NCBI GenBank assembly: GCA_964444955.1
Contig: CAYUJB010000001.1
Location: 1,816-65,815 of the forward strand
DNA from: an uncultured Candidatus Saccharibacteria bacterium
GTDB lineage: Bacteria; Patescibacteriota; Minisyncoccia; 2-02-FULL-40-12; GWA2-44-9
Reading direction: 5' to 3'
Length of the DNA stretch: 64,000 bases
This document shows positions 18,555 through 39,104 of the stretch, piece by piece. The position numbers and the translations under genes were made by a program. The notes below the pieces were generated by a model. The model searched no databases. It was not told the origin of the DNA and saw nothing but the letters and a program-made list of their open reading frames with translations. Each line of letters starts with the position of its first letter. Position 1 is the stretch's first letter.

Positions 18555-20309
18555 TTACGCTGTTGTTTGTCCTATTTTTGCCCACTCTTGCTTTGCCTTT
18601 TCGATCTCCAGAAGCTGCTTAGGGTCAGAGGTAATGATTTGATCTTCTGCGTATGCCGCCATCACACGTAGACCGACGTGGTTTGAGCCAAGGAAGAACA
18701 AACCGAACCCAACGCGTGCCTCGAGGAGGTAGTACTTTTCTGAGTCGGTGAGATTGAACGTCTGCTGGATGATGTCGATCGCTGCCGTTGATTGCTTCAT
18801 GAGCATTTGCATCGAGGAGTTGGTCACAATCGCCTTTCCCTGCGGGCTCGACATAAAATCAGGAATGTCTTGGCTGATGGTGGAGAGGCCGCAGTAATAT
18901 TTGCGGCCACGCTTGGCGATGTTGAACAAAAATTCAGCGCCCGTCTGGTATTTCATGAGCACCCACGCCTCATCCACCACGAGGAGTCGTTTTTTGCGCT
19001 CTCGACGTACTTGCGCCCAGATGTAGTTGAGCACCGAATACATCGCGATGGGGCGTAGCTCGTCTTCCAGATCACGCAAACCAAAGACGATGAGTTGGTT
19101 ATCGAGCGGAATATTGGTCGGATGGTTGAGAAATCCCGCAAAAGTTCCGGTGGTGAATTTCTCAAGTCGTACCGCCATACGCTCTGCACCCGTGATGCCC
19201 GAGAGGATGTTCTGGAGATCGCTCAGGACTGGCGGAGGAAGTTTTGAGAAGTCAGCATCGGGCACGATATCTTTAATCGCGTACGTTTGGATGAGCGCCT
19301 GGTCCAAAAGCGACTCTTCCTCGGGCGTGAGTCCCCCACCCATGATGAGCTTCACGAGGCCGGCCAGGTTGAGCACGTGGGAGTTGAATGCATCCGCCCA
19401 CGTCTCTTCATCTTTGGGCGTGGGGAGATCAAACGGATTGATGTGCTGGTCAGAATTGATGGAGATTTTGATCGATGTTCCTCCGACGGTATCGGAGAGG
19501 AAGCTATATTCGTTTTCGGGGTCGATGACCATGATTTGTGTGCCCAGGTACAGGTAGCGCAAGAGTTCGAGTTTGACGGTGTAGCTTTTACCGGCACCAG
19601 ATTTTGCGAACATGACTGAATTAGCGTTCTCCAGTGAGAATCGGTCAAAGATGACCATACTGTTGTTGGTGGTGTTGATGCCGTAGAGAACACCCGAATT
19701 CGAGGTAAGGTCACTGGAGACAAACGGGAACATCGATGCGATGGGTTGCGTGTTCAGTGGCGTCAGCGATAAGATGCGATCGTCAGCGAGTGGTGAGGTG
19801 GTGAGAAACCCTTCCAGCATACGAAACGATGTCTGCTTGGGGATCACGAGGAGTCCGTCGAGCATGCTTTTGATCTTGCCTTCGGTTTCATCGAGGTCGT
19901 GGAGTGAGTTTTCGTAGAGCGTGACGTAGAGACCAACTTGAAAGAATCGCTCGGTCCCCTGCTGAAGCTCGTCACGGAGTGCCTCCAAGTCTCCCACAGC
20001 CGTCTGGAGCACCGGATTACGTACCTTACCCGCTGCCTCTTCTTCCATGAGCTGTGCCTGTACCCTGGTGAGCTGGTCGCGCAGCTGCTTGAGCACCTCC
20101 GATGTCTCTTGGGGTGAGACAAAGATGGCAATATCGAGCACTTTGTCGAGGTTTACAATCGGTGAGAGCCAGTTCGCGTTCAGAAAGCGCGGATAGGTTG
20201 CAATAAAGATAGTGCGTGCAAACTTATCCCCTACTTGGATGTAGTTGGAAGATATTTTGATTGCTGATGGTGCCAGTGTTGTGGATGCTCCGACAGGGGT
20301 TGGTTCCAT
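18555..20309 (-). CDS. VirB4/TraC/TrbE-family type IV secretion ATPase (C-terminal ATPase module)
   Basis: Walker A AKSGAGKSYT, Walker B RLLVVDEAWVLM and an arginine finger region, in a DUF87/AAA-like domain organisation. Confidence 0.75.
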   Translation of the reverse strand: MEPTPVGASTTLAPSAIKISSNYIQVGDKFARTIFIATYPRFLNANWLSPIVNLDKVLDIAIFVSPQETSEVLKQLRDQLTRVQAQLMEEEAAGKVRNPVLQTAVGDLEALRDELQQGTERFFQVGLYVTLYENSLHDLDETEGKIKSMLDGLLVIPKQTSFRMLEGFLTTSPLADDRILSLTPLNTQPIASMFPFVSSDLTSNSGVLYGINTTNNSMVIFDRFSLENANSVMFAKSGAGKSYTVKLELLRYLYLGTQIMVIDPENEYSFLSDTVGGTSIKISINSDQHINPFDLPTPKDEETWADAFNSHVLNLAGLVKLIMGGGLTPEEESLLDQALIQTYAIKDIVPDADFSKLPPPVLSDLQNILSGITGAERMAVRLEKFTTGTFAGFLNHPTNIPLDNQLIVFGLRDLEDELRPIAMYSVLNYIWAQVRRERKKRLLVVDEAWVLMKYQTGAEFLFNIAKRGRKYYCGLSTISQDIPDFMSSPQGKAIVTNSSMQMLMKQSTAAIDIIQQTFNLTDSEKYYLLEARVGFGLFFLGSNHVGLRVMAAYAEDQIITSDPKQLLEIEKAKQEWAKIGQTTA

Positions 20310-21834: not shown

Positions 21835-24542
21835 GATTGTGTTGTTTCCTTCCTTAATTTCTGCAAGTCTCCATTCATGTCACTGCGACGACTTTCAAGA
21901 TCTTCGATCCATGCATCTAATCGTTTCTTCATCTTCTTATCGGTAGTTTTGTCTTGCTTTTTTCTGAGCCGTTTGATTCCTTGATTAAATTTCCGATCTT
22001 TTGCCTCTAACTCTTTGATATTTTTTCTTGCCGCTGAGCTTTTGATTTTTATGTTCGCGTACTCGTCTAAAATGCGTAGTTGCTGTTCAGGACTAGATAC
22101 ATTTCGGAGTATCTTCCCGAACTTTTCAGGCTTTTTAAGAGATTCTTTTAGCTTCTTTTGCAATTCATCGGGCATTTTTTCTTTTGTGGTGCCAACGGGC
22201 AGTGCTGCGTTCCTCTTCGCTAGCTCGTCTTCAAAATCGAGGACATCGAGATCGGAAAGAGAATCTGCACGATCTGACATTGCTTCGGCGGTAGTAACTT
22301 TCTTTCCATTTCTATCAGTTATAAGACCCATTCCGGCCATGAGTTCAATAGAAGCTACCTTGCTTCTGCCGTTTTTGGATGTTGCTTCAAGAAATGCTCG
22401 CTGATCCTCCGGGCTTTCCTTCATGAGTTCTGTAAGTTTGGTGAGTTGCGATTGATCAAATTTTGCTTTATTGCCAACTTCACCGCGCATAGCGGCATCC
22501 AAAAATTTGCGCACATCTTCTGGCTTGCCCGCACTTTTTGCTGCAGCGGCAAACTTATCAAATTCGAAATCTCCACTAGTGGGATCGAGATAAGTATCCC
22601 AAGCATTAGCCGAGCCCTTTTGAAGTTGCTCGGTAAGGCGCTTTTGGAATTCTTTGCGTGCGACAGGCGATACATCTCCATATTTCTTCAGAAGTAGTTG
22701 CCGTTCTGGTTCCGAGAGCTTGCCCTGCTTCATAAGTATCTCTCCTGCGGCGAGTGCGGCATCTCGATTACCGCTATTGAATTGCGAGCGCAAGTACGCT
22801 TCCTTCTTATCTTTATCAGTGATCTTGTTTGCCGCCGCCTCGATCATCCCCTTCTGCGCCTCAATACGCTTCTGCGCTAGCTTATCAACTTCGGCATCAG
22901 CACCACGAACACCATACTGCATCTTTTTATAGGCAACCGCTTCTTCCTGTGAACGAAATAGATTTGGCGCTCGTCCCTTGATGTTAGCCCCCATGTCTCC
23001 GAATGTCTGCGCCCCGCTGGCCTTAAGAGCTTCGTATGATGAAGTCATGCCGAGTTTATTCGCTACCGCATTAAATCCAAAGTTCGCCTTCTCCCCTACG
23101 CCAAGAGAGTCCGCGGCACCCCCGACATATTTCTTCAGGGAGTCGCTGAGAGAGAACGCATATTTCCATGCAGCGCCAGCTCCGCCGATAAATATCGAAC
23201 CAGCGAGCATGTAAAAAAGTCCAATACCGAAAACTCCAGCAAATGCCCCGGCATCTTTGAGGCCCGAAAGGAGCGAGTTCTGCTGACTCAAAACAAACAT
23301 TCCGATATAGATTACAAAGAGATAGAGTGGCGAAAAAATATTCCAACCAACCATGTTTCCGAACCACTCTTTATGCACCTTCGAACCGGGTACGCCGATA
23401 CTAAAGAATGCGAGGGCGGATAGTGATAGATAGAACCAGGTTACCGGAATTCGCACCACCATAACCACAACAGCGGTAACAAAAGAAAATGCGAGCACAC
23501 CCAAGAAGAAGTTGTTGATGAATAAGCTCAAGATCTTGAGCGCTTGCTCCGATGGCGAGGCGTGCCCTGCTTCTGTGGGCGGCGGCAATGATTGGGCGCT
23601 AGCCCAGGCTCCTTTTGCTGCTCCACTTAATACGCCAGTTCCAAATACGTAGCCCTCCGCGGCACCCGCTACGCCCCCTTTTGCGTTGTTTATCCAGTAA
23701 TTCCCCGCATCTTTTAACGTATCCCACCAACCAGGAGACGTACTCAGCCGCTGTATTTCCTTGTCGATAGCGGCGCTCGTTATAGGTGCTTGTACGCGCG
23801 CAGCTCCTGCGCTACACGCTGACATATTCTGACCAGATGCAAGGCAGTCTTCAAAATATTTCTTTGGCGCGCCAACATATCCTCTCTTTGCTACAAGTTG
23901 CGCAGGATCGAGTTGGTCATCAGGCACACTTGATAGCGGTGCCGCCACTAATGAAAGTCCATTACTACCTGCTGCGACCTGAAGCAGTTGTCCCTGCACC
24001 AAAACGGTGTCAGCGATGTCGATACTCTTACCATCGAGGCCCTTTCCCGTCATAAGACCTGCAACGAGCGAACTCGCTTGGTTTCCAGCCCAGATAATAA
24101 TCTGACCGATGGGAAGACTGAAATTAATAAGGAGAGCGGCGAGGATGACTCCTTTGAGCGCGCTGCTGTAGTAGTATGCTTTTGCCCCTTTTGGTGCGAT
24201 CGAATTGAAAATGGTGCTAAATGCAATAAGGATAAAGAAAATAATAAAGAGCGAGTTGCATATATCGCGAAATACTTTCCAGACGTTATAGACGGCGGCT
24301 CCTCCGTAATTAATCTCGCTTCCAATAATCCAATTTATTAGTTGTCCTCCCCAGACAATGATTTGAACGATTATGTCATGAACGGTCTCTAGGAGCCCGA
24401 CAAAAAGACCAAGAATATCCGATGCTATCCCGTCGCCGGCTGCGTGCGCAGGTGTCGGAACCAGCACGACGAGCGTCGTAATGATAAGGAGCGCAACGAT
24501 TGTAGAGCGATAGGATTTCATCATTGAACACCTTCGGTACAT
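21831..24542 (-). CDS. large polytopic membrane protein with a Lys/Glu-rich coiled-coil tail (VirB6/TrbL-like candidate)
   Basis: 903 aa. Signal-like N-terminus, two blocks of multiple TM helices, and a C-terminal roughly 350-aa charged helical region (KKMKKRLDAWIEDLESRRSDMNGDLQKLRKE). An alternative start at 24524 is possible. Confidence 0.5.
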   Translation of the reverse strand: MYRRCSMMKSYRSTIVALLIITTLVVLVPTPAHAAGDGIASDILGLFVGLLETVHDIIVQIIVWGGQLINWIIGSEINYGGAAVYNVWKVFRDICNSLFIIFFILIAFSTIFNSIAPKGAKAYYYSSALKGVILAALLINFSLPIGQIIIWAGNQASSLVAGLMTGKGLDGKSIDIADTVLVQGQLLQVAAGSNGLSLVAAPLSSVPDDQLDPAQLVAKRGYVGAPKKYFEDCLASGQNMSACSAGAARVQAPITSAAIDKEIQRLSTSPGWWDTLKDAGNYWINNAKGGVAGAAEGYVFGTGVLSGAAKGAWASAQSLPPPTEAGHASPSEQALKILSLFINNFFLGVLAFSFVTAVVVMVVRIPVTWFYLSLSALAFFSIGVPGSKVHKEWFGNMVGWNIFSPLYLFVIYIGMFVLSQQNSLLSGLKDAGAFAGVFGIGLFYMLAGSIFIGGAGAAWKYAFSLSDSLKKYVGGAADSLGVGEKANFGFNAVANKLGMTSSYEALKASGAQTFGDMGANIKGRAPNLFRSQEEAVAYKKMQYGVRGADAEVDKLAQKRIEAQKGMIEAAANKITDKDKKEAYLRSQFNSGNRDAALAAGEILMKQGKLSEPERQLLLKKYGDVSPVARKEFQKRLTEQLQKGSANAWDTYLDPTSGDFEFDKFAAAAKSAGKPEDVRKFLDAAMRGEVGNKAKFDQSQLTKLTELMKESPEDQRAFLEATSKNGRSKVASIELMAGMGLITDRNGKKVTTAEAMSDRADSLSDLDVLDFEDELAKRNAALPVGTTKEKMPDELQKKLKESLKKPEKFGKILRNVSSPEQQLRILDEYANIKIKSSAARKNIKELEAKDRKFNQGIKRLRKKQDKTTDKKMKKRLDAWIEDLESRRSDMNGDLQKLRKETTQS

Positions 24543-26143
24543 GCTGCGACGGGTGATCCTCCATCTGTACGGACAAACCCATCACCCGTGATGACATCAA
24601 AGGAGGTAGAAATGCCTGAATCACCCAGCACGATTTCATCATCTTGAGCAGGATGTAGATGACATACTCCTGCGCCGATGATGTCGCAGATGGCCTGCAG
24701 CACCAGTCGGAAGTCTACCCCAGGAGCGATCTTGCTAGTTCCGCTCTCAAACAGAGCAGGTTGATTTTGCATGACCGATGCGATCACTTGAGATATCACC
24801 CCCGAGGCAACAGCCCGCGCGGTGGGATCATCTTTCACACAGGTGCAGCGGGCGTCACCGCCAGTGCATGCTGGATCGTTGGGCGATGTCTCTCCTGGCG
24901 CCGGCGTCGGTGTGGGTTCTGGCGTGAAGTTGGCTGGGTCTCGCTCGGGGCCGAGCTCGAGCTTGAATGGTAGTGGAGCGTTGGAGAGGTCGAGAATACG
25001 TGTTTGGATGCGCGCCGCGATATCATCCATGAGTCCGCCATCACCGATGGCTACGGTCATGCGCGAGTAGTAGCCCTCGAGGTCGGACTTGATGATATCG
25101 CGCACGGCGCCTGGGACTTGCTTCATGACACCATCGTCAATACATTTTCCGTCGGGGTCTTTTGAGCACTCACCGCGAGTTCCTGAAAATCCCCCACCCG
25201 CAAGAGCCTCTGTGTAAGCTTCTGCAACGCGCGTGGATTTGAGCGTTTCAAATTCAGCGAGCGCCATAGCCTCAAAGTCGCGCCAGTTATTTTGGGGCTG
25301 CTCCATCAAGGCCAAAAACATGTAGCCACTATTTTTCCCCTCCTGATCAGGATCGGTACTCGTCACATCGAAACTCTCGGGAAGCGTGCATTTTGCGCGT
25401 AACTCGAAGGGCGCCCGCTCATCAGTTCGAAATCCAGCGATAGTAATATTAGGCGGACTGTCGCGATATGATTTCGGCACACCGAGATCGTTGAGCACTT
25501 TGTCTCGAAAGGCGGGGCAGATATCAGTGTTAGCCAAGAGCGCCCACCATTGTCGCTGCGCCAATTCTGCTGGGCGTACATTCAGGAAACGAGACCAGTC
25601 GGTTGCTGCGGCAATTCCCCCATCCAACCCCTGCGTTTGGAGCATAGTCGTCGCAGTTTCTGTGACGATGTTCTGCATGACGGTCGTGGTGCAGTTCACC
25701 AAGAAGTTTGATTTGAGGCGCGCTTTAAATTCAGTTTTCAGCTCTGCCTTTGCATCGGAAATTGGTACTTGCACGCATTCAATGGCAAGCGCTTTCCCAA
25801 CAAGAGGGATTTGTTTAATCAGCCCATTGAGCTTGCACATCGCATTTCCAACGGCAATATTCTTCGTCATCTGAAGGAGATCGTTGATCGTGTCCTGTGC
25901 CCAGTTTTTTACCTGCTGCGCTAGTTGGCCATTAAAAAGATTGAGCAGGTTGCCGCGGCACTCGGAGTATTTTGATCCATTAATCCCCTGCTCTTCAGAG
26001 ATTACTTGTACATCTACACTCGCTGGTCGGCGAATACCTAAGTCATTGAGGCTGATAGCTCGACTCACCGTGCCCACGAGAAGCAAGCCCGTGAAGACGA
26101 GTTCAGCGACGAGTAGTGCGGTTGTTAGACGTGGGAGTTTCAT
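24521..26143 (-). CDS. secreted Cys-rich protein (T4SS-like operon component)
   Basis: 540 aa. N-terminal hydrophobic signal/anchor (LLVAELVFTGLLLVGTV), many cysteines, and a PT-rich linker (PEPTPTPAPGETSP). Confidence 0.45.
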   Translation of the reverse strand: MKLPRLTTALLVAELVFTGLLLVGTVSRAISLNDLGIRRPASVDVQVISEEQGINGSKYSECRGNLLNLFNGQLAQQVKNWAQDTINDLLQMTKNIAVGNAMCKLNGLIKQIPLVGKALAIECVQVPISDAKAELKTEFKARLKSNFLVNCTTTVMQNIVTETATTMLQTQGLDGGIAAATDWSRFLNVRPAELAQRQWWALLANTDICPAFRDKVLNDLGVPKSYRDSPPNITIAGFRTDERAPFELRAKCTLPESFDVTSTDPDQEGKNSGYMFLALMEQPQNNWRDFEAMALAEFETLKSTRVAEAYTEALAGGGFSGTRGECSKDPDGKCIDDGVMKQVPGAVRDIIKSDLEGYYSRMTVAIGDGGLMDDIAARIQTRILDLSNAPLPFKLELGPERDPANFTPEPTPTPAPGETSPNDPACTGGDARCTCVKDDPTARAVASGVISQVIASVMQNQPALFESGTSKIAPGVDFRLVLQAICDIIGAGVCHLHPAQDDEIVLGDSGISTSFDVITGDGFVRTDGGSPVAACTEGVQ

Positions 26144-27060
26144 TTGCTATTGAGTGTTGTAGCCATGCGGTGTTGGAACGCAAGCGTGAGGTCGAGAGGC
26201 GTTTCGGAGGTGAGCGTGTTGAGCACCTGAAGAGATATCACTCCCATAAGTGGGTCACTGGCAATATTTTTTACCGCGCGATAGCGCTGCTGCGTTCCAC
26301 GGAGATACAAAATGAGAGATCGATGGAAATCAACCATGGGTGTCGGTACTCGAATGCTCTTGAGTGTGCGGATACGATCTTCGAACGCTACCGCTTCCGA
26401 ATCGGCAGACGCTACGAACGCTTGGAAGACTGATGGTTGTGTAGTGTTGAGTTTTGGGAGATCGGCCAGCGATGCGTTCCCCGCTGTTGCAAGAAAAGCG
26501 CGGTAGTTAGCACTAATCTCAGTAAACATAGGCGCGAGGATGCTTGCCATCTTGAAGCTGTACGCCATCAAGTTGTCTCTGCTGGTGGACGCGACAGCAA
26601 TCGAGTCTAATTCTGAGGCGACATTGGTGGTGTACTGATTGAATATTTCATCGACGAGGTCATCGACGGAGGTGTTGTAGGTTGGATTTTTCGGATCAAG
26701 GTTGCCGGCAGCCACGCCACCCATCAAGAGTGTTGACGCGCGTTGGGTGAGGTTGCGCTTGTTGTCGAGGAAATCATTCGGGCCGGCTTTGGCGGGATCG
26801 TGGCCGGAGAGCACCTCTTCCCCATCCTTATACCCATCACCATCAGTGTCGGGATTTTTGAAGTCGGTATTCCAGTAGGTCTCGTCGTAGTCGCACAGAC
26901 CGTCACCATCTTGATCGTTGCAGTTCGCTGGCGTGGGGGTGGGTTGCGTGATGCTATCGGAGATGGTGGCAGTGGTGAGTGTTGAGCGGAGAGCGTACCA
27001 AAAAGACAAGCCGGCACCCACGGCCAAAACAGCGAGCAGGAATTTAAGTCTTCCACTCAT
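26140..27060 (-). CDS. secreted protein with thrombospondin-type-3-like Ca-binding Asp repeats
   Basis: Start corrected to ATG 27060 (MSGRLKFLLAVLAVGAGLSF), with a GAGG 7 nt upstream. The ORF-track start at 27081 is a GTG lying inside the promoter. Repeats include DQDGDGLCDYDE and NPDTDGDGYKDGEE. Confidence 0.45.
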   Translation of the reverse strand: MSGRLKFLLAVLAVGAGLSFWYALRSTLTTATISDSITQPTPTPANCNDQDGDGLCDYDETYWNTDFKNPDTDGDGYKDGEEVLSGHDPAKAGPNDFLDNKRNLTQRASTLLMGGVAAGNLDPKNPTYNTSVDDLVDEIFNQYTTNVASELDSIAVASTSRDNLMAYSFKMASILAPMFTEISANYRAFLATAGNASLADLPKLNTTQPSVFQAFVASADSEAVAFEDRIRTLKSIRVPTPMVDFHRSLILYLRGTQQRYRAVKNIASDPLMGVISLQVLNTLTSETPLDLTLAFQHRMATTLNSK

Positions 27061-27071
27061 AGATTGCCTCA

Positions 27072-27080
27072 ATTCTACCA
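27072..27080 (-). promoter_or_regulatory. extended -10 promoter element (TGgTAGAAT) for the T4SS-like operon
   Basis: Minus-strand sequence gtggtagaat lies 12 nt upstream of the ATG at 27060. The same TGgTAGAAT element precedes the tRNA-Ser pair at 38991-39000. Confidence 0.4.
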
Positions 27081-27118
27081 CGTTTGAGGCGCAGAAAATC
27101 TACACTTCGTGTGTATAT

Positions 27119-29843: not shown

Positions 29844-29930
29844 ACTGGCGCTGAGTATAGCAGAAAAACGCTTATAACAAAGAAAAAAAGACGAGCATTG
29901 TTGCTCGTCTTGTCGAGGGGGCCGCCTCCC

Positions 29931-30212
29931 TCACCGCCCGCTCACCTTTTCAAGCGTCTGGCGGATCTCGTGCGGATCCTGTGTGGTGCACACCCGAAAG
30001 TTCATCATCATGATTCCGTCATGATAAGCGGGGCCAGCCCACACGAACACGCACGCCGGCTTCTCCATGCTACTCAGATAGGCCTGGACTGCCCTGAACT
30101 GCTTCCAGTTGAGACTGAGCTCGATCATAGTGTTTTTCACGACGGCTCCTTTTTCTCGAGTTGCTGCTGTTGCGTTGTTGGCGCATCCTGAACCGTCAGG
30201 AGTATGGCCCAC
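29931..30212 (-). CDS. small hypothetical ORF (uncertain)
   Basis: 93 aa ORF with no recognisable motif. It borders the ORF-free structured region and could be non-coding. Confidence 0.2.
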   Translation of the reverse strand: MGHTPDGSGCANNATAATREKGAVVKNTMIELSLNWKQFRAVQAYLSSMEKPACVFVWAGPAYHDGIMMMNFRVCTTQDPHEIRQTLEKVSGR

Positions 30213-30683
30213 CCCGCGATTTTATCGAGTAGTGCTACGGTCTCTTTGTCGCCGGTATGCTTTTTGAGTAGCTCCTGAAGGCTCCGCTCAATAATACTCC
30301 AGGCTTCTTTCTGCGTTTCCACGATGCTTCTACTAAATAATTATGAGTTGTAAAGGTGAATCTCTACAAGGTCTCGAGATAGTCTCAAGAGCTTGAGTGA
30401 GTGGGCGATAATTGGTCACAAGGTATCGCCCCTATCCTCGGGTCTGCGTGCGGGATTACTCCCCCACCAGTTGCCAGAACAACTCCTCCGCCTCCTTCTC
30501 CTTCCCTTCTCTGAAGAGTCGGTTGAAGACTGCATCGAAGTTGCGTCTCGCCTCTTCCGGGAGCGAGACCTGGGGCTCCCGGACGACACGTCCGGTAGTC
30601 CAGCTGTACGCACCAACACGCTCGCCGTCAATCTTGACTAGCTCCATGACACCCTCCTTTAGGGTTGCGGGCGAAATGCCCGA

Positions 30684-30737
30684 TTTCTGTTTCGGCCTGC
30701 TGGCCTCATCAGTCGGAGCGAATACTCCGAGACAGAG
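30684..30737. repeat. 54-nt structured element, copy A
   Basis: ttctgtttcggcctgCtggcctcatcagtcggagcgaatactccgagacagaga. Folds as an outer 10-bp stem (ucuguuucgg/ccgagacaga with one G-U pair) enclosing the hairpins GGCC-ugcu-GGCC and CGGAG-cgaaua-CUCCG. Confidence 0.5.
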
Positions 30738-31099
30738 AGGAAGTTTAAAGAGATTCCTCAGCTCGTATTTTCAGGTTTCCGTTGTAGCGGATTCCCGACT
30801 AACATTGCGATGTGGGTATAACGAACCCTCCATCCAACGCTCTTGCATTAGCTTGACTGCAAGAGAGGCGTGCCGAGGGAAAAGCGTCCCCCGACTTTAG
30901 GCCCTTATAAACTAAACAGAAGTTTATAGCCTACCCGTTCGGATTATGAATGACGTATCACTCATAATATGGGCTCTCCTTCGACGGGAATACCCGATGA
31001 TACGTGCCCCAAGCTGGCACGGGATGGAGTCTCTACAAAGACTCCGGTTGATGCGCGTTTCCCTCGCGGCTGGTGTTCGACACCAGCCGCCATCAACTC

Positions 31100-31153
31100 T
31101 TCTGTTTCGGCCTGTTGGCCTCATCAGTCGGAGCGAATACTCCGAGACAGAGA
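31100..31153. repeat. 54-nt structured element, copy B (53/54 identical to copy A)
   Basis: Direct repeat of copy A, 416 bp downstream, with one C/T difference. Both lie inside the 1.85 kb ORF-free region. Confidence 0.5.
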
Positions 31154-32170
31154 CTGTTAAGGGTGGTCATCCCATCGATTTGTTGACTCGGCCGATACCG
31201 AGCATGCATTTTCTGTTCCCAGGACTGCGATGACACCCCGGCGCGCTGCATTTCAGCAGTCGCAGGATTCGTAGGCGGCCCTTCCATAAAGCAGGGTCTC
31301 GGGGGGCTTCCCAGGCATCTTGCGAGAACACTGACTGCCGTTCAAGCCGGGATTGCTGGATCTCACCCAGCAATGCCCCAAGAGATAGTGCCTTCTCGAA
31401 ATCTGCCTCGAGCGGCGGCTACCCCGGATAAGCTCCTCGGAAGACTTCCAGAACTTCGTGCCTGTCCTAGAGGAATACCCTCCGCGCCTACTAGAGTCGT
31501 TGCCCTGGAGACGCACTTCTTCGGTGCTGCCCTTGCGTCGCACAGTCAACTTTCTAGTATAGTATACTGTTGCCATGTCCCCTCCTAGGGAAAATTGTGC
31601 GGGATTATGCCCGCATCGGAGCGTCCAATAACATTAGGCGCTTTGATGTGGGACCCAGTAGGAAAACTGGGTTGGGGAAGTTTTGTGAGATTCCCCAGCT
31701 CACGGAAGTAGAAGATGAGCGTGACCCCCATTGTGGAATAGCAAGTCCTTCTACTGCCAAAGTTTATGTGAGTTCGGGTTTTTTGTCGGACAGCACGACG
31801 GCATGTCGGACTTTTTAACATTTACCGCGTCTCCCACTCGGGGGGACGGTACCATGTTCCCACTGGGCTATGTAATTATCCCCCTCAAACTTTTCAGCGA
31901 GGAAAGACCCGACCATAGCTTGACTCCCATTTTCGAAGGACTTTGACCTCCGCTTAACTTCAGACATGAGTACTCTTGACTACTTCCAAGAGATCATCTA
32001 TGTCCTCCCACGCTCACTTACCAGTATACGCGTGATTCCATTGACAGAGAAGTATTGACGGTTTCTAATATGTTCTAAGTAAAGAAAATGGCTTAGTACA
32101 AGGTGAATTTATCCACTTTTGTATGTCGAAAAAACTTGACAGATTGGTCTGTTTTTGATAAACTACCCCT

Positions 32171-33007
32171 ATGAACGGTGAAAAAGCACTCGATATTCTC
32201 AAGTTATCCAACAACGAACAGCGGGTACTCCAAGCTGTTCAAGAAGGTTTGGGTACCCCGCTGGCTATTTCGCGCAGTTCAGGTGTTTCCCGAACGACCA
32301 TCTACACTGTACTGGAGAGCCTGAAGGAGCGCGGCCTCGTTAAGTCGACGATTCAGGAGGGACGCAAATCGTGGATTGTCGCTCCTGAACAAGCTATCTC
32401 CGAGGCGACTCGGCATGTTCGTCAGGGGCTATTCACTCAATCCCCCGTCGGGAGAGAGGTTGGTGGCGTCACTGCCACTTCGGACGCCGCGGTAGTTGCC
32501 TACCGTGACGCGCGCGACATCAAGGCGCTTCTCCTTAAGATGCTTTCAGAGCATTCACAGGAAAAACTCTACATCCTCCAGGGCGATACTGCGACAATCG
32601 GGTGGGATAAGATATTCAGCGTTGAGGAGACCAATGCTCTCAATGCTATTATCAAAAAAAACGATATCGTCGTGGAAGCATTTTTACCGCCCGGATGGTT
32701 CGAAAAACATTTTGAACTTCTTGGTAAAGAGTGGGCAACAGAGTTTCATGGTCGTGCTACGCGCGCCAACATTATCCCCGCTGAGTACTTCAAACATGGC
32801 GGTCAAGTTTATGTGTTTAAAGATGCAACCTATTTTCTCGCGCTCCACGATGAGCTCGTTGTTGAGATAAAAAATCCCGATATTCAAAAAGTTATCCTCT
32901 CTTTGTTAGAGTTTCTCCAAGAACATTCCCGGCCTATCGATGTGAACGCTACGCTGCGAAAGTTAGCAGGCATTGGGGAGTACAGAACGAATGATGATAC
33001 AATTTAG
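32171..33007 (+). CDS. winged-HTH transcriptional regulator (TrmB/MarR-like N-terminus) with an uncharacterised C-terminal domain
   Basis: N-terminal LSNNEQRVLQAVQEGLGTPLAISRSSGVSRTTIYTVLESLKERGLV is a typical wHTH. 278 aa. Confidence 0.5.
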   Translation: MNGEKALDILKLSNNEQRVLQAVQEGLGTPLAISRSSGVSRTTIYTVLESLKERGLVKSTIQEGRKSWIVAPEQAISEATRHVRQGLFTQSPVGREVGGVTATSDAAVVAYRDARDIKALLLKMLSEHSQEKLYILQGDTATIGWDKIFSVEETNALNAIIKKNDIVVEAFLPPGWFEKHFELLGKEWATEFHGRATRANIIPAEYFKHGGQVYVFKDATYFLALHDELVVEIKNPDIQKVILSLLEFLQEHSRPIDVNATLRKLAGIGEYRTNDDTI

Positions 33008-33680: not shown

Positions 33681-33751
33681 TGGACCTGGGGAGAATCGAA
33701 CTCCCGCCTCAGCAATGCGAATGCCGTGTAATGCCACTTTACTACAGGCCC
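33681..33751 (-). tRNA. tRNA-Ala (anticodon CGC), CCA not encoded
   Basis: Hand-folded cloverleaf. Acceptor GGGCCUG/CAGGUCC with the G3:U70 Ala identity pair. D-stem GTAA/TTAC. Anticodon stem CGGCA/TGCTG with loop TTCGCAT. T-arm GGGAG-TTCGATT-CTCCC. Confidence 0.8.
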
Positions 33752-33856
33752 GAAACTTCAAGAAAATACCACAAAACTGGCGTTTCTGCTAGTGCGGTAA
33801 GGATTTGGCTCCTGCTGCGTCTTACGTAGTGTAACAACTTCATATATACTCCTCAC

Positions 33857-34459
33857 ATGAACAAACACCTCGTAGCCATCGTAACCCTCGGTGCAGTGAT
33901 GGGCGGTTCGGTAATGCCAGCGCTTGCCAAGGAAGGTTCCGGAATGTCTCGCGCATCATTTAAAGAAGTTCGCCAAGAACGACAGGATCAGCGTGAGATG
34001 AACGGCATTAAGAATCAAGCCAATCGCGACGCACTCCGCACCACCCTCGATGCCAAGCGTGCACAGCAGAGCAAGGATCGCGTCTCGAAGTTTTGGAGCA
34101 AATCGTCCGCACAGCTTCAGAAGTTGATCGATCGTGAAACGAAAATGTCGGCAAAAATTGCCGAGCGCCTCGCGAAGTTCAAGGCAGCCGGCAAGAATAC
34201 GTCCAGCCAAGAGGCATTGCTCGCGACCGCGAACGCATCGATAGCAACTGCGCAAACTGCCCTCACGAATGCACGTGTAACTATCCAGGCGATGATTACC
34301 GCCAATGCGTCACCAGCTGATATTACCGCGAAGACGCGCGAACTCCATAAGGATGTCACCACGAAGATTCGCGCTGCGCACAAGGCGCTTGTCGATGTGA
34401 TTGTTGCTACACGTGGCATGTCTGCAACAGCGACGCCCTCGGTAACCCCTACGCCGTAA
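33857..34459 (+). CDS. secreted all-helical protein (hypothetical)
   Basis: Signal peptide MNKHLVAIVTLGAVMGGSVMPALA, then a Lys/Ala/Gln-rich helical region and a PT tail. Sits upstream of the ECF sigma factor gene. Confidence 0.4.
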   Translation: MNKHLVAIVTLGAVMGGSVMPALAKEGSGMSRASFKEVRQERQDQREMNGIKNQANRDALRTTLDAKRAQQSKDRVSKFWSKSSAQLQKLIDRETKMSAKIAERLAKFKAAGKNTSSQEALLATANASIATAQTALTNARVTIQAMITANASPADITAKTRELHKDVTTKIRAAHKALVDVIVATRGMSATATPSVTPTP

Positions 34460-34465
34460 GCACGT

Positions 34466-34963
34466 ATGACAGAAACTGTGGAAGAGCGGTTCGTATCGGC
34501 CTATGATCAGCATGGCGACGCCATCTTCCGTTTCTGTTACGCACAAACCGGGCGACGTGAGCTTGCGCTCGATCTGACGCAAGACACGTTTGCCCGGGTG
34601 TGGCGCCACCTCGTACAAGGCAAGACAATCACTGATATACGTCCCTTTCTCTATACGACGGCTCGTCACGCCATCATCGACAATGCTCGACGTGGATCAG
34701 CTCAATCGCTGGATGCACTGCGTGAAGAAGGATTTGATGTAGTCGATGAACGTGCAGCTGATCCCCTACTGTCGGCTTCCGCAACTCACGCGCTCCGCGT
34801 GCTCGGCAAACTTGAGCCGATGTATCGCGAAGCAGTCACGCTTCGCTACGTCGACGATCTGATGCCGCGAGAGATTGCTGGGATCACCGGTGAAAACGAA
34901 AACACTATTTCAGTACGCATCACCCGCGGCCTCACACAGCTCAAAGAACTTCTCCACCTATGA
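34466..34963 (+). CDS. ECF-type RNA polymerase sigma-70 factor
   Basis: 165 aa. Sigma region 2 (FRFCYAQTGRRELALDLTQDTFARVW) and region 4 HTH (REAVTLRYVDDLMPREIAGITGENENTISVRITRG). Confidence 0.8.
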   Translation: MTETVEERFVSAYDQHGDAIFRFCYAQTGRRELALDLTQDTFARVWRHLVQGKTITDIRPFLYTTARHAIIDNARRGSAQSLDALREEGFDVVDERAADPLLSASATHALRVLGKLEPMYREAVTLRYVDDLMPREIAGITGENENTISVRITRGLTQLKELLHL

Positions 34964-35481
34964 CAAACCCCGAAAACAATCTAGCTGAACTTCGCACCGT
35001 TGCACTCACCGACAGTGAACGCAGTGCTATGCGCCAGCAACTCCGCGCGTTTACTTCTCCGCATATCGCCTCTCGCGCTCCGTCCTTTTTTGCTCGCCAC
35101 AGCGCCCTGGCATTGGGTATGGCGGTGATACTCATCGGTGGCGTCACAAGCGTCTCGGCAAACTCAGCAAATCCTGGCGATGCACTGTATGGATTTCGTA
35201 CTCACGTGAATGATCGGGTACAAACCGCATTAACTCTTGATGATGAGCGGCGCCTTGATGTTGAGCTCGAGCAAATCCAACGCATGATTGACGGAGAAGA
35301 TTCGTATCGTATGGATGAATTGAGTGTCTCCGCCGACGACGAAACCGATGCCGTCGAAACCGAAGATCGCGAAGATACTCCCGATGAAACCATAGAAGGC
35401 GCGGATGATTTTGATCGTGAGCTCAAAGGTATTGAGCACGATCTCAACGTCGAGTCAGACTCCGGTATCGAGCTGGAATAA
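34960..35481 (+). CDS. putative anti-sigma factor (single TM, acidic C-terminus)
   Basis: Start overlaps the sigma factor stop as ATGA. One TM helix (ALALGMAVILIGGVTSV) and a very acidic extracytoplasmic tail. Assignment is positional inference. Confidence 0.4.
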   Translation: MTNPENNLAELRTVALTDSERSAMRQQLRAFTSPHIASRAPSFFARHSALALGMAVILIGGVTSVSANSANPGDALYGFRTHVNDRVQTALTLDDERRLDVELEQIQRMIDGEDSYRMDELSVSADDETDAVETEDREDTPDETIEGADDFDRELKGIEHDLNVESDSGIELE

Positions 35482-35485
35482 AGGA

Positions 35486-36226
35486 CTATCCTTTTAGGAT
35501 TCCAAGTTTGTTTTCAAGGGATTGTTGAGGATAGAGGTCTGATGGATAAAGCTCGATGAGTGCAATCTTATAAGCTTGGCAGATTTCCTGTTTCTTTTTC
35601 ACTGAGTGATCGTAGCGCGGACTATCTTTCGCGAGACCGAAGTACTCGATGAATGTGTCCCCTACACGCCAATCAGCCCGATGCTTTGTGGTGGGGTAGC
35701 GGGCATCTCTTTCGTGAGGAATGTCATGCTGAGTAAGCCAATTATCTATTAGTGCCTCGGATATGGAATCGCAGATATGTCCATCGCGCGCCTTTGTTTT
35801 TGTTCGGCGATACATCTGACTATCGTGAGAGCGATTTGGTAGGAGACCTACTTCTTGCAGAAGAGCATTCCACGAACCATACTCACGGATTGCAGCGTAC
35901 GAAATACTTCCGAGTTCTCGACGGGAAGGAGTCCTCTTGAGAGTCTCCGAAAGCTTCTTTACTTCATTTATTATTTGCAGGGAAGTGTATTTTTGTTTTC
36001 CGAGTTCTCGACATGCAACTGAACAAAAAATACTCTTCGCGGTCTTACGAAATGTAATCCCGCAGGAGGCGCAAGTCTTTTCAGGCGCGGGTCTTTTGGG
36101 GTAGCGTTTGTTGTTAACGCTAGCTGAACACGAGCGTGAGCAATAATTGTGGAGTGAAATTGCAGAATCGGGACGTAAAAATGTCTTCCCACAGCTCGCA
36201 TTTTCACACGTGAGCATTTGATTCAT
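35486..36226 (-). CDS. zinc-ribbon protein with an uncharacterised C-terminal domain (hypothetical)
   Basis: Three CxxC/CxxxC pairs in the first 75 aa (CENASCGKTF...CSRSC, CASCGITF...CSVAC). The C-terminus has a DSISEALIDNW...ADWRVGDTFIEYFG pattern, possibly nuclease-like. Embedded among tRNA genes. Confidence 0.4.
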   Translation of the reverse strand: MNQMLTCENASCGKTFLRPDSAISLHNYCSRSCSASVNNKRYPKRPAPEKTCASCGITFRKTAKSIFCSVACRELGKQKYTSLQIINEVKKLSETLKRTPSRRELGSISYAAIREYGSWNALLQEVGLLPNRSHDSQMYRRTKTKARDGHICDSISEALIDNWLTQHDIPHERDARYPTTKHRADWRVGDTFIEYFGLAKDSPRYDHSVKKKQEICQAYKIALIELYPSDLYPQQSLENKLGILKG

Positions 36227-36232
36227 AAATTG

Positions 36233-36304
36233 TCAGGCTGCCGGGATTTGAACCCGGAGTCTCACCGACCCGAACGGTGCGTGTTACCGTTACACTACAG
36301 CCTG
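36233..36304 (-). tRNA. tRNA-Pro (anticodon CGG), CCA not encoded
   Basis: Acceptor CAGGCUG/CAGCCUG with C1:G72 as in bacterial tRNA-Pro. D-arm GTGT-AACGGTA-ACAC. Anticodon stem CACCG/CGGTG with loop TTCGGGT (G37). T-arm CCGGG-TTCAAAT-CCCGG. Confidence 0.8.
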
Positions 36305-36435
36305 TTGTATCTGCACAGTATACTGCATTTTACTTGATATTACTAGCATTCTAAGCTCCAGCAGCGCGAGCGCGATTATAAAAAAAACCGAGCACTTCAG
36401 TGCTCGGTTTGGCGTTACTAATTTCTTCCGTCCAG

Positions 36436-37872
36436 CTATACGTAGTATTTTTTCATACGCTCCTGCTCCTCGTCGTCGAGGGCTTTTTTAATGCGCTCAA
36501 GGGCGGTCGCCAGCTCCTCTGGCGTCTTGGCGTCGAGTTTTTTGGCGCGAGCTAAGAGCGTCTCTTTTTCGTTGAGCGTGGGATCGTCGAGCACTTCTGC
36601 CAGCAGCGAGCTCAGGATTAGTCCGAGTTTGGGGCCAGGCGGCATCGCCAGTGCTTCCATAATGTCTTTGCCGTCCACCTTGAGCATCTTCACCGAGATG
36701 GCGTCGTGGCTCACTTTGTCGATCATGTACTTGAGGTGGCGGAGCTTGTACGGTACGGCCTTGGGTGTGCCAGAGCCAATGCGATCCCCTTCTCGCAGTC
36801 GCAACAGGTCGTCGATATTTTCGAGACCAACGTTGGCGATGAGGCGGCGCACGGATGATTCGGTGACTTCACCGACGCTGTAGTAGAACATATGGTAGCG
36901 CACTAAGAGCGCGACTTTATCGCTCAGGTCTTTGGGAAACTTCAGTCGCTCCATGATTTTCTTGGTCATCGTGCCACCGACGGCATCATGCGCATAAAAA
37001 GTGCAGTGACGTCCCTCGCCCCGCTTGGTGCGAGGTTTACCCACATCGTGGAGCAGACACGCCATGCGAACAGCAAACGAGTATTTCTTGTCGGCCGCGT
37101 ACTTCATGGTGCGCAAGTTGTGTTCCCAGACGGAATAGATGTGGTGGAGGTTTTGCTCAACGCCCAATCCTTCGCGCAGTTCAGGGAGAATGTATTTGAG
37201 CAAACCGACATCTTCGAGCAATTGGATGCCCTCGAATGCGCGCGGTGCATCGATAATTTTAATGAGCTCATCGCGCACGCGCTCAATAGAAATTTCCTTG
37301 AGCGCATCGGCATGGGCGATGAGCGCCTTGAGTGTCGCGTCTTCGATGGTGAAATCAAGCGACGTCGCAAACCGCACTGCGCGCATCATGCGCAGCGCAT
37401 CTTCGCCAAATCGTTCCGTTGCTTCCCCTACCGCGCGCAGGGTGCGCGCCTCGATATCGCGCTGCCCGCCATAGGGATCAACGATATCCCCATTACTTCG
37501 TGCCGCGATGGCGTTGACGGTGAAATCGCGGCGCGACAAATCTTCTTCGACGGTCTTTGCAAAGGTAATTGAGTCGGGGTGCCGTTTGTCGGTGTAGCCT
37601 CCTTCGGTACGAAACGGTGTTACCTGCACGGTGCGCACGATAGGGTCATCATCACGCGTCTTGATAGTGACTGTACCGAACGCATTGTCATAGAAATGAT
37701 CAGGAAAGAGCTCCTGGATTTTTTCTGGTGCTGCACCGGTGGTGATATCCCAATCGGTGGGGTGGCGACCCATCAACATGTCGCGCACGCATCCGCCTAC
37801 TATATAGGAAGGGTATCCCGCGTCTTCGAGCGTTTGCAATATCCCGCTTACTTTCGGATGAATTTCTAGCAT
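36436..37872 (-). CDS. cca: CCA-adding tRNA nucleotidyltransferase with an HD domain
   Basis: Pol-beta head YIVGGCVRDMLMGRHPTDWDITT, an HD motif (LLHDVGK), and a C-terminal tRNA-binding region. Confidence 0.8.
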   Translation of the reverse strand: MLEIHPKVSGILQTLEDAGYPSYIVGGCVRDMLMGRHPTDWDITTGAAPEKIQELFPDHFYDNAFGTVTIKTRDDDPIVRTVQVTPFRTEGGYTDKRHPDSITFAKTVEEDLSRRDFTVNAIAARSNGDIVDPYGGQRDIEARTLRAVGEATERFGEDALRMMRAVRFATSLDFTIEDATLKALIAHADALKEISIERVRDELIKIIDAPRAFEGIQLLEDVGLLKYILPELREGLGVEQNLHHIYSVWEHNLRTMKYAADKKYSFAVRMACLLHDVGKPRTKRGEGRHCTFYAHDAVGGTMTKKIMERLKFPKDLSDKVALLVRYHMFYYSVGEVTESSVRRLIANVGLENIDDLLRLREGDRIGSGTPKAVPYKLRHLKYMIDKVSHDAISVKMLKVDGKDIMEALAMPPGPKLGLILSSLLAEVLDDPTLNEKETLLARAKKLDAKTPEELATALERIKKALDDEEQERMKKYYV

Positions 37873-37877
37873 TCGTG

Positions 37878-37952
37878 TGGTGCCCCCGAAAGGAATCGAA
37901 CCTCCATCGTACCCTTAGGACGGGTCTGCTCTATCCGTTGAGCTACGGGGGC
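37878..37952 (-). tRNA. tRNA-Arg (anticodon CCU), CCA encoded
   Basis: Acceptor GCCCCCG/CGGGGGC plus discriminator A and CCA. D-arm GCTC-AACGGATA-GAGC. Anticodon loop GTCCTAA. The anticodon stem has one G27-A43 mismatch. The T-stem GGAGG/CCTTT has two G-U pairs. Confidence 0.65.
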
Positions 37953-38095
37953 GACGGATTACCAAATACCTTGCTAGAGTACCCTTTTTATGATATTTTT
38001 TCAAACGCATTCATTACGAAATGGGCCCATATGAATACATATAGGGCCCGGCGCTCACATCCATAAGATTTAGACAATCTTCTGTATGCTCACTT

Positions 38096-38169
38096 GGGCC
38101 CATAGTGAAGCGGTATCACGCATCCATGGCATGGATGAAGTCGGGGTTCGACTCCCCGTGGGTCCACCA
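38096..38169 (+). tRNA. tRNA-Ala (anticodon GGC), CCA encoded
   Basis: Acceptor GGGCCCA/UGGGUCC with G3:U70. D-arm GTGA-AGCGGTA-TCAC. Anticodon stem CATCC/GGATG with loop ATGGCAT. T-arm CGGGG-TTCGACT-CCCCG. Confidence 0.8.
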
Positions 38170-38218
38170 ACACACAAACGCTCCGCATCGCGCGGAGCGT
38201 TTGTGATATACTCTTGGT

Positions 38219-38950: not shown

Positions 38951-38971
38951 TTTCTCGTTCGTCCCAACTAT

Positions 38972-39000: not shown

Positions 39001-39011
39001 TTGCGGCTGAA

Positions 39012-39098: not shown

Positions 39099-39104
39099 CA
39101 GGTA

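Follow-up and report, generated by a model that had tools for sequence, protein, structure and literature searches.

A pair of near-identical predicted hammerhead ribozymes brackets a strongly folded 415-nt unit upstream of small genes in a Candidatus Saccharibacteria chromosome

What occupies the 1.85 kb at 30323-32170 of a 64,000-nt window (the whole stretch of DNA analyzed here, from an uncultured Candidatus Saccharibacteria bacterium)? An initial annotation had described this interval as free of ORFs, dense in hairpins, and not AT-rich, and had proposed that it holds a large structured noncoding RNA or a degraded mobile element. Its borders are as described, a 61-amino-acid (aa) ORF at 30137..30322 on the minus strand and a TrmB-type HTH regulator gene at 32171..33007 on the plus strand, in a chromosomal context near dnaA where the neighbors are uvrD, ksgA, the TrmB-like regulator gene, a histidine phosphatase gene, and tRNAs. 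With a GC content of 0.52 to 0.54, as in the rest of the window, the interval is indeed no AT-rich desert. It is not free of ORFs, however, since the minus strand carries a 63-aa gene and a 107-codon ORF and the plus strand a 162-codon ORF with a TTG start, the last of which is probably spurious. A predicted minus-strand transcription unit of small genes has its 5' portion in the flagged interval, which contains the following ORFs.

30456..30647, minus strand: conserved 63-aa protein gene with a strong Shine-Dalgarno sequence, inside the flagged interval
31253..31576, minus strand: 107-codon ORF, rich in Arg, Ser, and Gly, with a strong Shine-Dalgarno sequence, AGGAGGGG
30412..30900, plus strand: 162-codon TTG ORF, antisense to the 63-aa gene

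Folding in the interval goes far beyond chance, but only locally. In a folding scan with 200-nt windows, the minus strand gave z = -5 to -6.6 at 30700-31200 and a weaker peak of z = -3 to -4.5 at 31500-31800. From 31200 to 31500 and from 31800 to 32170, folding was ordinary (z about 0 to -1.5); unremarkable folding energies extend over ~700 nt of the interval. The four hairpins quoted in the initial annotation are all present, both in the sequence and in the minimum-free-energy fold, and all four lie within a 415-nt unit (31145..30731). RNase P RNA, tmRNA, and SRP RNA were not detected with Rfam and ARAGORN, in agreement with the earlier check by eye; ARAGORN reported neither a tRNA nor a tmRNA in the region, and the segment GAGGAAAGACCCG (31900-31912), which had been called loosely P4-like, matches nothing. 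At gathering thresholds, Rfam returned only tRNAs from the whole window, all of them outside the flagged region. The cmscan run against all Rfam models that had been suggested as a check is therefore empty for this region at default settings, but a search by E value recovers ribozymes there. Hammerhead_3 was the only Rfam family to match, even at E <= 10, and it matched two sites.

31099..31153, minus strand: HHR2, type III hammerhead ribozyme (Rfam RF00008, 46.3 bits, E = 2.3e-8, full-length model match)
30684..30738, minus strand: HHR1, second copy of the HHR2-type hammerhead (Rfam RF00008, 44.4 bits, E = 7.9e-8, full-length match)

Both scores fall below the RF00008 gathering threshold of 48.5 bits, which is curated and conservative, and default cmscan accordingly misses both hammerheads; the shortfall arises because loop II is short and loop I longer. 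A type III hammerhead is recognized by the core C3-U-G-A-N-G-A9 and G12-A-A14 with an NUH cleavage triplet, by loop-closed stems I and II and an open stem III, and by intact core-adjacent pairs. Both copies read GUC/...CUGAUGA...GAAA, with zero core substitutions; both have a stem I of 6 bp and a stem II of 4 bp, each closed by a loop, and an open stem III of 5 bp, and the core-adjacent pairs G10.1-C11.1, U1.1-A2.1, and A15.1-U16.1 are all in place. The window contains the core pattern CTGATGAG-N8-20-CGAAAC two times, with 0.03 occurrences expected by chance. In an alignment of seven related copies from five sources, 98% of the cells in the three helices are paired and there are 7 compensatory pairs, although five of the seven copies were retrieved through the stem I pattern, so that the covariation of stem I comes from a single sequence; none of 500 shuffles matched the pairing and compensation of this alignment. 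As judged from sequence, both copies appear to be real hammerhead ribozymes in which the defining chemistry-related features are all present, and self-cleavage is predicted after C31146 in HHR2 (GUC/U, 31146/31145) and after C30731 in HHR1 (30731/30730).

HHR1 and HHR2 differ at a single base, in loop II, and together constitute a 54-nt direct repeat (98% identity, 415 nt start to start). The initial annotation had overlooked this repeat. The locus is identical in the independent assemblies L001 and L002; the window sequence recurs unchanged in L142 and L143 as well, up to the point where these end inside HHR2, at the repeat. The pair is not an assembly artifact, given the identical independent assemblies and the one-base difference between the copies. 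The hammerheads have the same orientation as the 63-, 61-, and 69-aa genes, uvrD, and a minus-strand terminator; Rfam detected no plus-strand ribozyme in the region at E <= 10, and the window contains this one ribozyme pair only.

The repeat is exactly the 54-nt ribozyme, and its flanks diverge at the first and last base. Comparison with related strains places breakpoints at the same edges. Strain L139 is ~99% identical to the window through the last base of the ribozyme; past it, the leader and gene cannot be aligned (~44-50% identity at the protein level), and identity of 93-99% then resumes. The sequences of L136 and L139 are unrelated ahead of the ribozyme and, from its first base on, 95% identical, and L003 carries an orthologous 63-aa gene without a ribozyme. 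Relatives have only separate modules of the region in common. In tblastn searches with all ORFs of the related loci, only the 63-aa gene, its 3' untranslated region (UTR), and the ribozymes were matched. These alignments suggest that the 54-nt ribozyme behaves as an exact cassette boundary, with the neighboring sequence being exchanged between strains.

The rest of the transcription unit consists of small genes with structured leaders and spacers. The elements that delimit it, together with the divergent promoter on the other strand, are listed here.

31610..31697, minus strand: conserved structured two-hairpin leader, immediately 5' of the 107-codon ORF's Shine-Dalgarno sequence
30648..30683, minus strand: short leader from HHR1 to the 63-aa gene, with the hairpin CGGGC-AUUUC-GCCCG followed by the Shine-Dalgarno sequence AAGGAGGG
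30323..30455, minus strand: structured 3' UTR or intergenic spacer after the 63-aa gene (z = -2.4 to -2.7)
29888..29911, minus strand: intrinsic terminator closing the small-gene operon (63-, 61-, and 69-aa genes), a 10-bp stem followed by a U-tract
32136..32164, plus strand: divergent promoter of the TrmB-like regulator gene, TTGACA-17-TAAACT, 10/12 matches, extended TG

The homologues of the 63-aa protein are P0002 (79% identity), P0003 (57-59%), and a 62-aa allele in L136 and L139 (~44-50%); three other variants of the family are known, with no relative in IMG/VR, and the protein has no Pfam, PHROG, NCBIfam, or PADLOC match. Its AlphaFold model comprises three strands and two helices at low confidence (pLDDT 66), too low for a fold search. 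The ATG of the gene lies 42 nt past the GAAAC of HHR1, and alignments of 83-88% identity continue from the gene into its 3' UTR in L003, L136, and L139. The leader at 31610..31697 is composed of a GGGGAA/UUCCCC hairpin and then a 6-bp ACCCAG/CUGGGU hairpin that abuts a long interrupted hairpin. It has no Rfam match and is homologous to a direct repeat in L003, where two copies lie 250 nt apart and the second directly precedes the 63-aa homologue; across the three copies the leader is 97% paired with 5 compensatory pairs, and it folds with z = -3.6. The TrmB-like regulators beside the window locus and beside L003 are not orthologues. It is doubtful that the 107-codon ORF encodes a real protein, as its translation matches only itself in the database and no Pfam, PHROG, or NCBIfam family, and the folding z-score over it is ordinary. 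The 69-aa protein has one close relative and weak repeat-like matches in giant proteins. The terminator sits just upstream of uvrD. A promoter scan of the minus strand gave no convincing candidate; the two sites proposed, 32051..32023 and 31789..31761, match at only 8/12 positions. On the plus strand, the ATG of the regulator gene is 6 nt past the end of the -10 hexamer, and its mRNA is therefore probably leaderless.

Between the two predicted cleavage sites lies the sole strongly overfolded stretch of the interval.

30731..31145, minus strand: 415-nt unit between the two predicted cleavages, branched, 62% paired, without a credible ORF

The minimum free energy of this unit is -168.5 kcal/mol (z = -7.39), and none of 100 shuffles was as stable; it holds several perfect 8-11-bp stems. 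Its plus strand folds almost equally well (z = -6.3), so that strand-symmetric palindromes account for part of the signal. In the predicted fold, the two ends of the unit pair, which restores stem III, and the 5' part and the 3' end together re-form a complete hammerhead. A rod-like, viroid-type fold was considered and rejected, the circular fold being branched. Only two sense ORFs are present, of 44 and 66 aa, neither with a PHROG or NCBIfam family match, and exact look-ups of the spurious ORFs within the unit returned no records. Of the large structured noncoding RNA envisaged at the outset, there is a predicted highly structured, apparently noncoding RNA, but one confined to the 415 nt between two hammerheads and not extending over 1.85 kb.

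Essentially a single sequence represents the interior of the unit, and its structure is accordingly a thermodynamic prediction without covariation support; no homologue that would permit a covariation test was found in the collections scanned. No match was obtained in a distant-mode blastn search of 50,697 phage records, and two exact patterns from inside the unit gave only chance matches in IMG/VR, in unrelated coding DNA. The stem-I-specific hammerhead pattern was found in no viral sequence, one genome, and three metagenomes, and none of these carries the unit. The last 100 nt of the unit are 99% identical in L139. A greater conservation of the unit than of its flanks was considered and dropped, as L139 is simply a close strain (~99% identical outside the swapped cassette). 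Complementarity of the unit to possible antisense targets within the window was limited to chance-level 10-13-mers. In the Parcubacteria metagenome-assembled genome L131, a hammerhead with the same stem I is followed by ~470 nt of noncoding sequence that folds even more strongly (z = -11.3), a hint that structured RNAs launched by ribozymes could be a recurring feature of this group.

The reading that we favor, and that we hold to be probable, is that the twin hammerheads process a polycistronic transcript of the small genes and release a noncoding 415-nt RNA, with cleavage as predicted. Transcription of the minus strand would start upstream of the structured leader, at ~31700-32050, proceed through the leader, the 107-codon ORF, HHR2, the 415-nt unit, HHR1, and the 63-, 61-, and 69-aa genes, and end at the terminator (29911..29888). 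Each ribozyme would then cleave itself after its GUC, at 31146/31145 and 30731/30730, to give three products: an upstream fragment, a heavily folded noncoding RNA of 415 nt with a 5'-OH and a 2',3'-cyclic phosphate, and an mRNA of the three small genes. At its start, this mRNA would have the two ribozyme hairpins and a further one, 42 nt ahead of the ATG, and would gain a context-independent, structure-protected end bearing a 5'-OH. With a hairpin at its end, and with two ends that rebuild a hammerhead, the 415-nt product would be a discrete, stable RNA that ligation could possibly turn into a circle. A further step, which we regard as unlikely, is that the ribozyme or an RtcB-type ligase closes this RNA into a stable circle with its own function; the locus would then be a chromosomal cassette for a circular or end-protected RNA in a candidate-phyla-radiation bacterium, a prokaryotic counterpart of retrozyme and viroid-like circular RNAs.

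The strongest competing account, to which we give a modest chance, is that an ordinary small protein gene once located between the hammerheads, like those in phage and prophage arrays, has degenerated, leaving a functionless 415-nt by-product whose hairpins arose by coincidence or survive from intercistronic stabilizer hairpins. Hammerhead-hammerhead intervals usually hold a gene: sense ORFs lie between the ribozymes in 8/8 viral-contig intervals examined, and in 6/8 an ATG-initiated sense ORF starts 42-47 nt after the GAAAC, a range that includes the 42-nt spacing from HHR1 to the 63-aa ATG. The HHR2-HHR1 interval lacks such a gene and could therefore be a decayed cassette. Its 44-aa ORF begins 8-11 nt past HHR2, the adjacent 107-codon ORF is likewise an orphan, which suggests decaying or new sequence, and neither exact-pattern scans nor searches of cultured-phage and viral-contig DNA turned up the unit in a second context or as a diverged homologue. 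Decay does not readily account for z = -7.4 and perfect 8-11-bp stems, given that coding sequences of the window have z about 0 +/- 1.5. Nor could a frameshifted remnant be detected in comparisons with Pfam, PHROGs, NCBIfam, and the proteins of related loci: pseudogene remnants were absent from Pfam searches of the four small minus-strand ORFs and from PHROG, NCBIfam, and PADLOC searches of ORFs on both strands, results that also speak against the degraded mobile element of the initial annotation. Finally, a second strain whose neighboring cassette has been replaced retains the unit (its last 100 nt) at ~99% identity.

It is distinctly improbable, in our view, that the ribozyme-unit-ribozyme block is instead an integrated small circular element analogous to a retrozyme, which would have recombined into a hammerhead already present there and would be excised as circular RNA. 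The architecture is that of a retrozyme or viroid monomer, with tandem, near-identical ribozymes bounding a compact noncoding unit whose ends rebuild the hammerhead (PMC4918200); L136 looks like a single-ribozyme site with different upstream sequence, and the recombination breakpoints fall exactly at ribozyme edges. The direct repeat is only 54 nt, however, with no long terminal repeats (LTRs) of 300-400 bp and no visible target-site duplication, and the opposite polarity has no ribozyme. There is one pair of copies only in the window, no reverse transcriptase or integrase among the neighboring genes examined, and no other context for the unit in the collections scanned. A single large ornate RNA of the GOLLD, ROOL, HEARO, or OLE-like kind spanning all 1.85 kb, as the long gene-poor region and its two separate overfolded stretches might have suggested, is scarcely credible, since the Rfam models of large RNAs find nothing in the region, either at gathering score or at E <= 10, a conserved protein gene lies inside the interval, ~700 nt fold no better than ordinary sequence, two predicted self-cleavage sites would cut such an RNA up, and relatives share only separate modules.

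Bacteria and phages abound in hammerhead ribozymes. With processing by the twin ribozymes as the preferred reading, this locus offers a clean natural case in which one 54-nt ribozyme is predicted both to insulate a small-gene leader and to bracket a strongly folded noncoding RNA, and in which strain comparisons show the ribozyme as the exact edge of exchanged cassettes. It also points to a likely occurrence of hammerheads in candidate-phyla-radiation bacteria, a link that did not appear among the matches listed in a full-text literature search. If the excised RNA proved to be circular or functional, it would tie bacterial genomic hammerheads to the circular-RNA biology of plants, animals, and viroid-like agents. 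A practical lesson is that Rfam default thresholds miss these ribozymes by ~2-4 bits.

Processing by clustered hammerheads is already known from prophages; the present case would place it in a bacterial chromosome with a noncoding cargo. Perreault et al. (2011, PMC3088659) described such clusters flanking genes in prophages and bacterial genomes and cleaving transcripts of 2 kb in vitro. The locus resembles them in having several co-oriented hammerheads in one transcription unit, bounded cassettes that vary in content between genomes, a ribozyme ~40 nt upstream of a start codon, and a predicted cutting of polycistronic RNA into defined pieces; a hairpin just 5' of the cleavage site is found in 8/9 contexts. 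It differs from those clusters in that its inter-ribozyme interval is a 415-nt strongly folded sequence with no credible gene, in that the neighbors scanned include no integrase or phage genes, in that its small ORFs have no PHROG match, and in its host, probably a candidate-phyla-radiation (Parcubacteria-like) bacterium as judged only from the stem I shared with a ribozyme of a Parcubacteria metagenome-assembled genome. Plant retrozymes have LTR-like direct repeats of ~300-400 bp, each with a hammerhead, along with 4-bp target-site duplications, a PBS, and a PPT (PMC4918200), and retrozyme hammerheads are of type III in plants and type I in animals (PMC4918200, PMC7229834). Here too, two direct-repeat hammerheads bound a noncoding unit of a few hundred nucleotides, and the monomer is predicted to be highly structured with ends that re-form the ribozyme; unlike retrozymes, the locus is prokaryotic and single-copy, its repeat is 54 nt, and it has neither LTRs nor a target-site duplication at its outer edges. 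The comparison with Avsunviroidae and viroid-like circular RNAs runs along similar lines. At 415 nt, the unit is in the viroid size range, with a type III hammerhead and a compact branched fold (62% paired). Unlike those RNAs, it is encoded in chromosomal DNA, on a contig assembled from DNA, it has a ribozyme in one polarity only where Avsunviroidae have them in both, and it gives no sign of the RNA-templated replication by which such RNA-only agents multiply. The small-gene leader also has an engineered parallel. In the RiboJ insulators of synthetic biology, the sTRSV hammerhead and a hairpin are placed upstream of the ribosome-binding site. The order of HHR1, a short hairpin, and a Shine-Dalgarno sequence gives a natural locus this insulator layout, and the predicted cleavage of HHR1 would likewise strip away the upstream context and leave a structured leader with a 5'-OH.

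The interval 30323-32170, initially annotated as a 1.85-kb ORF-free region, is real but was misread; it consists of leader and cassette sequence punctuated by ribozymes. Its borders were placed correctly, with a 61-aa ORF (30137..30322, minus strand) at the left and a TrmB-type helix-turn-helix regulator starting at 32171, and its GC content (0.52-0.54) is that of the window. It is not free of ORFs, since it holds a 63-aa gene, a 107-codon ORF and a plus-strand TTG ORF. In sliding 200-nt folds, beyond-chance folding was found mainly at 30700-31200 on the minus strand (z = -5 to -6.6), with a weaker second peak at 31500-31800 and ordinary folding at 31200-31500 and 31800-32170.

Features of the region, minus strand from 5' to 3', then plus strand
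31697..31610, minus: structured leader
3' of the leader, minus: Shine-Dalgarno sequence of the next ORF
31576..31253, minus: 107-codon ORF, AGGAGGGG ahead of its start
31153..31099, minus: HHR2, upstream hammerhead ribozyme, predicted cut between 31146 and 31145
31145..30731, minus: 415-nt unit
30738..30684, minus: HHR1, downstream hammerhead ribozyme, predicted cut between 30731 and 30730
Between HHR1 and the 63-aa gene, minus: small hairpin and Shine-Dalgarno sequence
30647..30456, minus: 63-aa gene with a strong Shine-Dalgarno sequence; homologues at 79 %, 57-59 % and about 44-50 % identity
After the 63-aa gene, minus: conserved structured 3' UTR
After the 3' UTR, minus: 61-aa and 69-aa genes
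29911..29888, minus: intrinsic terminator, with uvrD beyond
Within the interval, plus: TTG-initiated ORF of 162 codons, antisense to the 63-aa gene

A direct-repeat search revealed that a 54-nt sequence at 31100-31153 recurs with 98 % identity at 30685-30738; Rfam searches by E-value identified both copies as full-length type III hammerheads on the minus strand (46.3 bits, E = 2e-8, for HHR2; 44.4 bits, E = 8e-8, for HHR1). The Rfam scan proposed in the initial annotation gave no match in the interval at default thresholds because both ribozymes score slightly below the gathering score of 48.5 bits. The sequence common to both copies is UCUCUGUC/UCGGAG-UAUUCG-CUCCGA-CUGAUGA-GGCC-ARCA-GGCC-GAAA-CAGAA, and neither copy has a defect in the catalytic core, the GUC cleavage triplet or the three core-adjacent pairs. 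A generic core pattern has two matches in the window (0.03 expected), and no further ribozymes were found in its 64 kb. HHR1 and HHR2 were aligned with five related copies, found in a Parcubacteria MAG and on three metagenome contigs. Pairing across the three helices is 98 %, and seven pairs are changed on both sides, which none of 500 shuffles matched; the five relatives were retrieved by their stem I pattern, so independent covariation lies mostly in stem II. HHR1 and HHR2 are ordinary members of the type III class. Their duplication is real: independent assemblies give the same sequence here, and a single loop base distinguishes the two copies. Two Logan contigs, L142 and L143, end at window position 31124, inside HHR2, where short-read assembly breaks because the 54-nt ribozyme is repeated. 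Systematic fragmentation, and hence under-detection, of twin-ribozyme loci of such layout is to be expected in short-read assemblies.

The 415-nt unit contains all four hairpins quoted in the initial annotation. Its minus-strand fold (-168.5 kcal/mol, z = -7.4; plus strand, z = -6.3) is 62 % paired and branched rather than rod-like, and its only sense ORFs, of 44 and 66 aa, lack family matches. In the predicted fold, ACAGA, which follows the ribozyme hairpins at the 5' terminus, pairs with the unit's 3' end (..UCUGUC), suggesting that an excised monomer would rebuild a complete hammerhead. The 415-nt product is possibly a functional, perhaps circular, RNA; alternatively, it may be a dead cassette, essentially one sequence being known for the unit interior. 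Of the large structured noncoding RNA proposed initially, what stands is an over-folded noncoding interval of 415 nt between the two ribozymes rather than an RNA of 1.85 kb. The suggested large ornate classes (GOLLD, ROOL, HEARO and OLE-like) gave no match in Rfam searches, and a degraded transposon drew no support from family or related-locus protein searches.

Orthologues of the small genes were traced by exact-protein look-ups. L139, a contig from a different sample that begins inside the unit, matches the window at about 99 % identity over the final 100 nt of the unit and through the ribozyme; alignment is lost exactly past GAAACAGAAA, where L139 has its own leader (about 130 nt) and a 62-aa allele sharing only about 44-50 % of residues with the 63-aa protein, and identity returns to 93-99 % from the 3' UTR on. 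A second contig, L136, carries the ribozyme with 54 of 54 bases the same and the L139-type cassette, but is unrelated upstream right to the ribozyme's first base. L003, a related locus with the 79 % orthologue, has neither ribozyme nor unit. These flank comparisons indicate that the 54-nt ribozyme is a discrete module, found in at least four flank contexts, whose edges coincide with recombination breakpoints. Near-identical strains thus carry divergent 62/63-aa alleles and unrelated leaders (window 30456-30683, minus strand; L139 158-471; L136 145-458), the replacement being limited exactly by the hammerhead 3' end on the left and ending near the stop codon on the right; the pattern resembles an exchange of cassettes or the effect of diversifying selection on a very small protein. 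The 3' UTR (30340-30455, minus strand) aligns at 83-88 % identity in L003, L136 and L139 and contains hairpins, including a UUGUAG-loop hairpin that has a similar counterpart inside the unit (31026-31045, minus strand).

The leader has homologues in L003, where they form a direct repeat (7767-7831 and 8013-8081, plus strand; 250 nt apart); the second copy directly precedes the orthologue of the 63-aa gene, mirroring the twin-hammerhead layout. Across the three copies it forms two adjacent hairpins (97 % paired, five compensatory pairs): the first, ACCCAG/CUGGGU, directly adjoins the second, which is long and interrupted and ends in ..GUGCGGGA. No Rfam family matched the leader, whose long stem might serve for RNase III-type processing or for protein binding. 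A further relative of the 63-aa gene, in L010, encodes 67 aa at 57-59 % identity and also has a direct repeat upstream (80-121 and 343-384, plus strand; 42 nt; 263 nt apart; copies 86 % identical). The repeat comprises a GC hairpin and then an AT-rich palindrome, and its sequence is unrelated to the hammerhead and the L003 motif. Repeat-unit-repeat arrangements therefore lie upstream of this gene family in all three lineages.

A search with the stem II pattern relaxed matched at least 120 contigs in IMG/VR, several with two or three copies. An ATG-initiated sense ORF begins 42-47 nt after GAAAC in six of eight intervals between hammerhead copies on these contigs, and the 42 nt from HHR1 to the ATG of the 63-aa gene is this standard geometry; a hairpin lies just upstream of the cleavage site in eight of nine contexts. 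Contigs with the same stem I include phage-like L134, cellular L132 (rpsP, trmD) and a Parcubacteria MAG. In the last (JBBQLO010000005.1, 7300-7830, minus strand), about 180 nt are known upstream of the hammerhead, and some 470 nt of noncoding sequence follow it (z = -11.3), in which CGATTCCTGACAGGAATCG motifs recur and a very long, imperfectly paired hairpin occurs, ending at a convergent tRNA gene.

The window is bacterial chromosome near the replication origin, encoding DnaA, a PilB-like ATPase, PBP1, a VirB4/TraG-like ATPase, the CCA-adding enzyme, RecG, PolA, UvrD, KsgA and seven tRNAs, and no prophage context was detected at the locus. A possible candidate-phyla-radiation host is suggested by the stem I shared with the Parcubacteria MAG hammerhead. 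All seven tRNA genes fall in a 6.6-kb stretch (33681-40248), distributed over both strands, interleaved with the CCA-adding enzyme gene (36436..37872) and including two adjacent 87-nt tRNAs (39012-39098, 39105-39191). A minus-strand run (16508-27081) holding the VirB4/TraG-like ATPase (18555..20309), a bacterial TSP3-repeat protein and large 903- and 540-aa proteins without Pfam match may be a type IV secretion/pilus-like module or an integrated element. Only 6 nt separate a plus-strand promoter, TTGACA-17-TAAACT (32136..32164), from the ATG of the TrmB-like regulator, and the regulator mRNA is therefore probably leaderless; L003 has a similar promoter with the same ACCCC behind it (about 6721-6755), after its own non-orthologous TrmB-like gene.

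Both hammerheads are co-oriented with the operon, and we infer that its transcript would self-cleave at both sites. The small-gene mRNA would so gain a context-independent, hairpin-protected end with a 5'-OH, and a 415-nt RNA would be freed with a 5'-OH, a 2',3'-cyclic phosphate and both ends in one helix, which could persist as a stable linear RNA or be ligated into a circle.

Hammerhead clusters in bacterial and phage DNA are already known: in prophages, multiple hammerheads flank genes and 2-kb transcripts are cleaved, and circular products were sought and none found (Perreault et al. 2011, PMC3088659). Here the cargo between the ribozymes is structured and noncoding in place of a gene, outside any detected prophage. 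None of the top full-text matches linked hammerheads with Patescibacteria, CPR or Parcubacteria, and the host lineage is probably one in which they have so far gone undiscussed. Retrozymes have a similar layout, but their defining LTRs and target-site duplications are absent here. Strictly speaking, the locus is not viroid-like: it is encoded in DNA, and only one polarity carries the ribozyme. The processed, hairpin-protected end proposed for the small-gene mRNA resembles that produced by the engineered RiboJ insulator.
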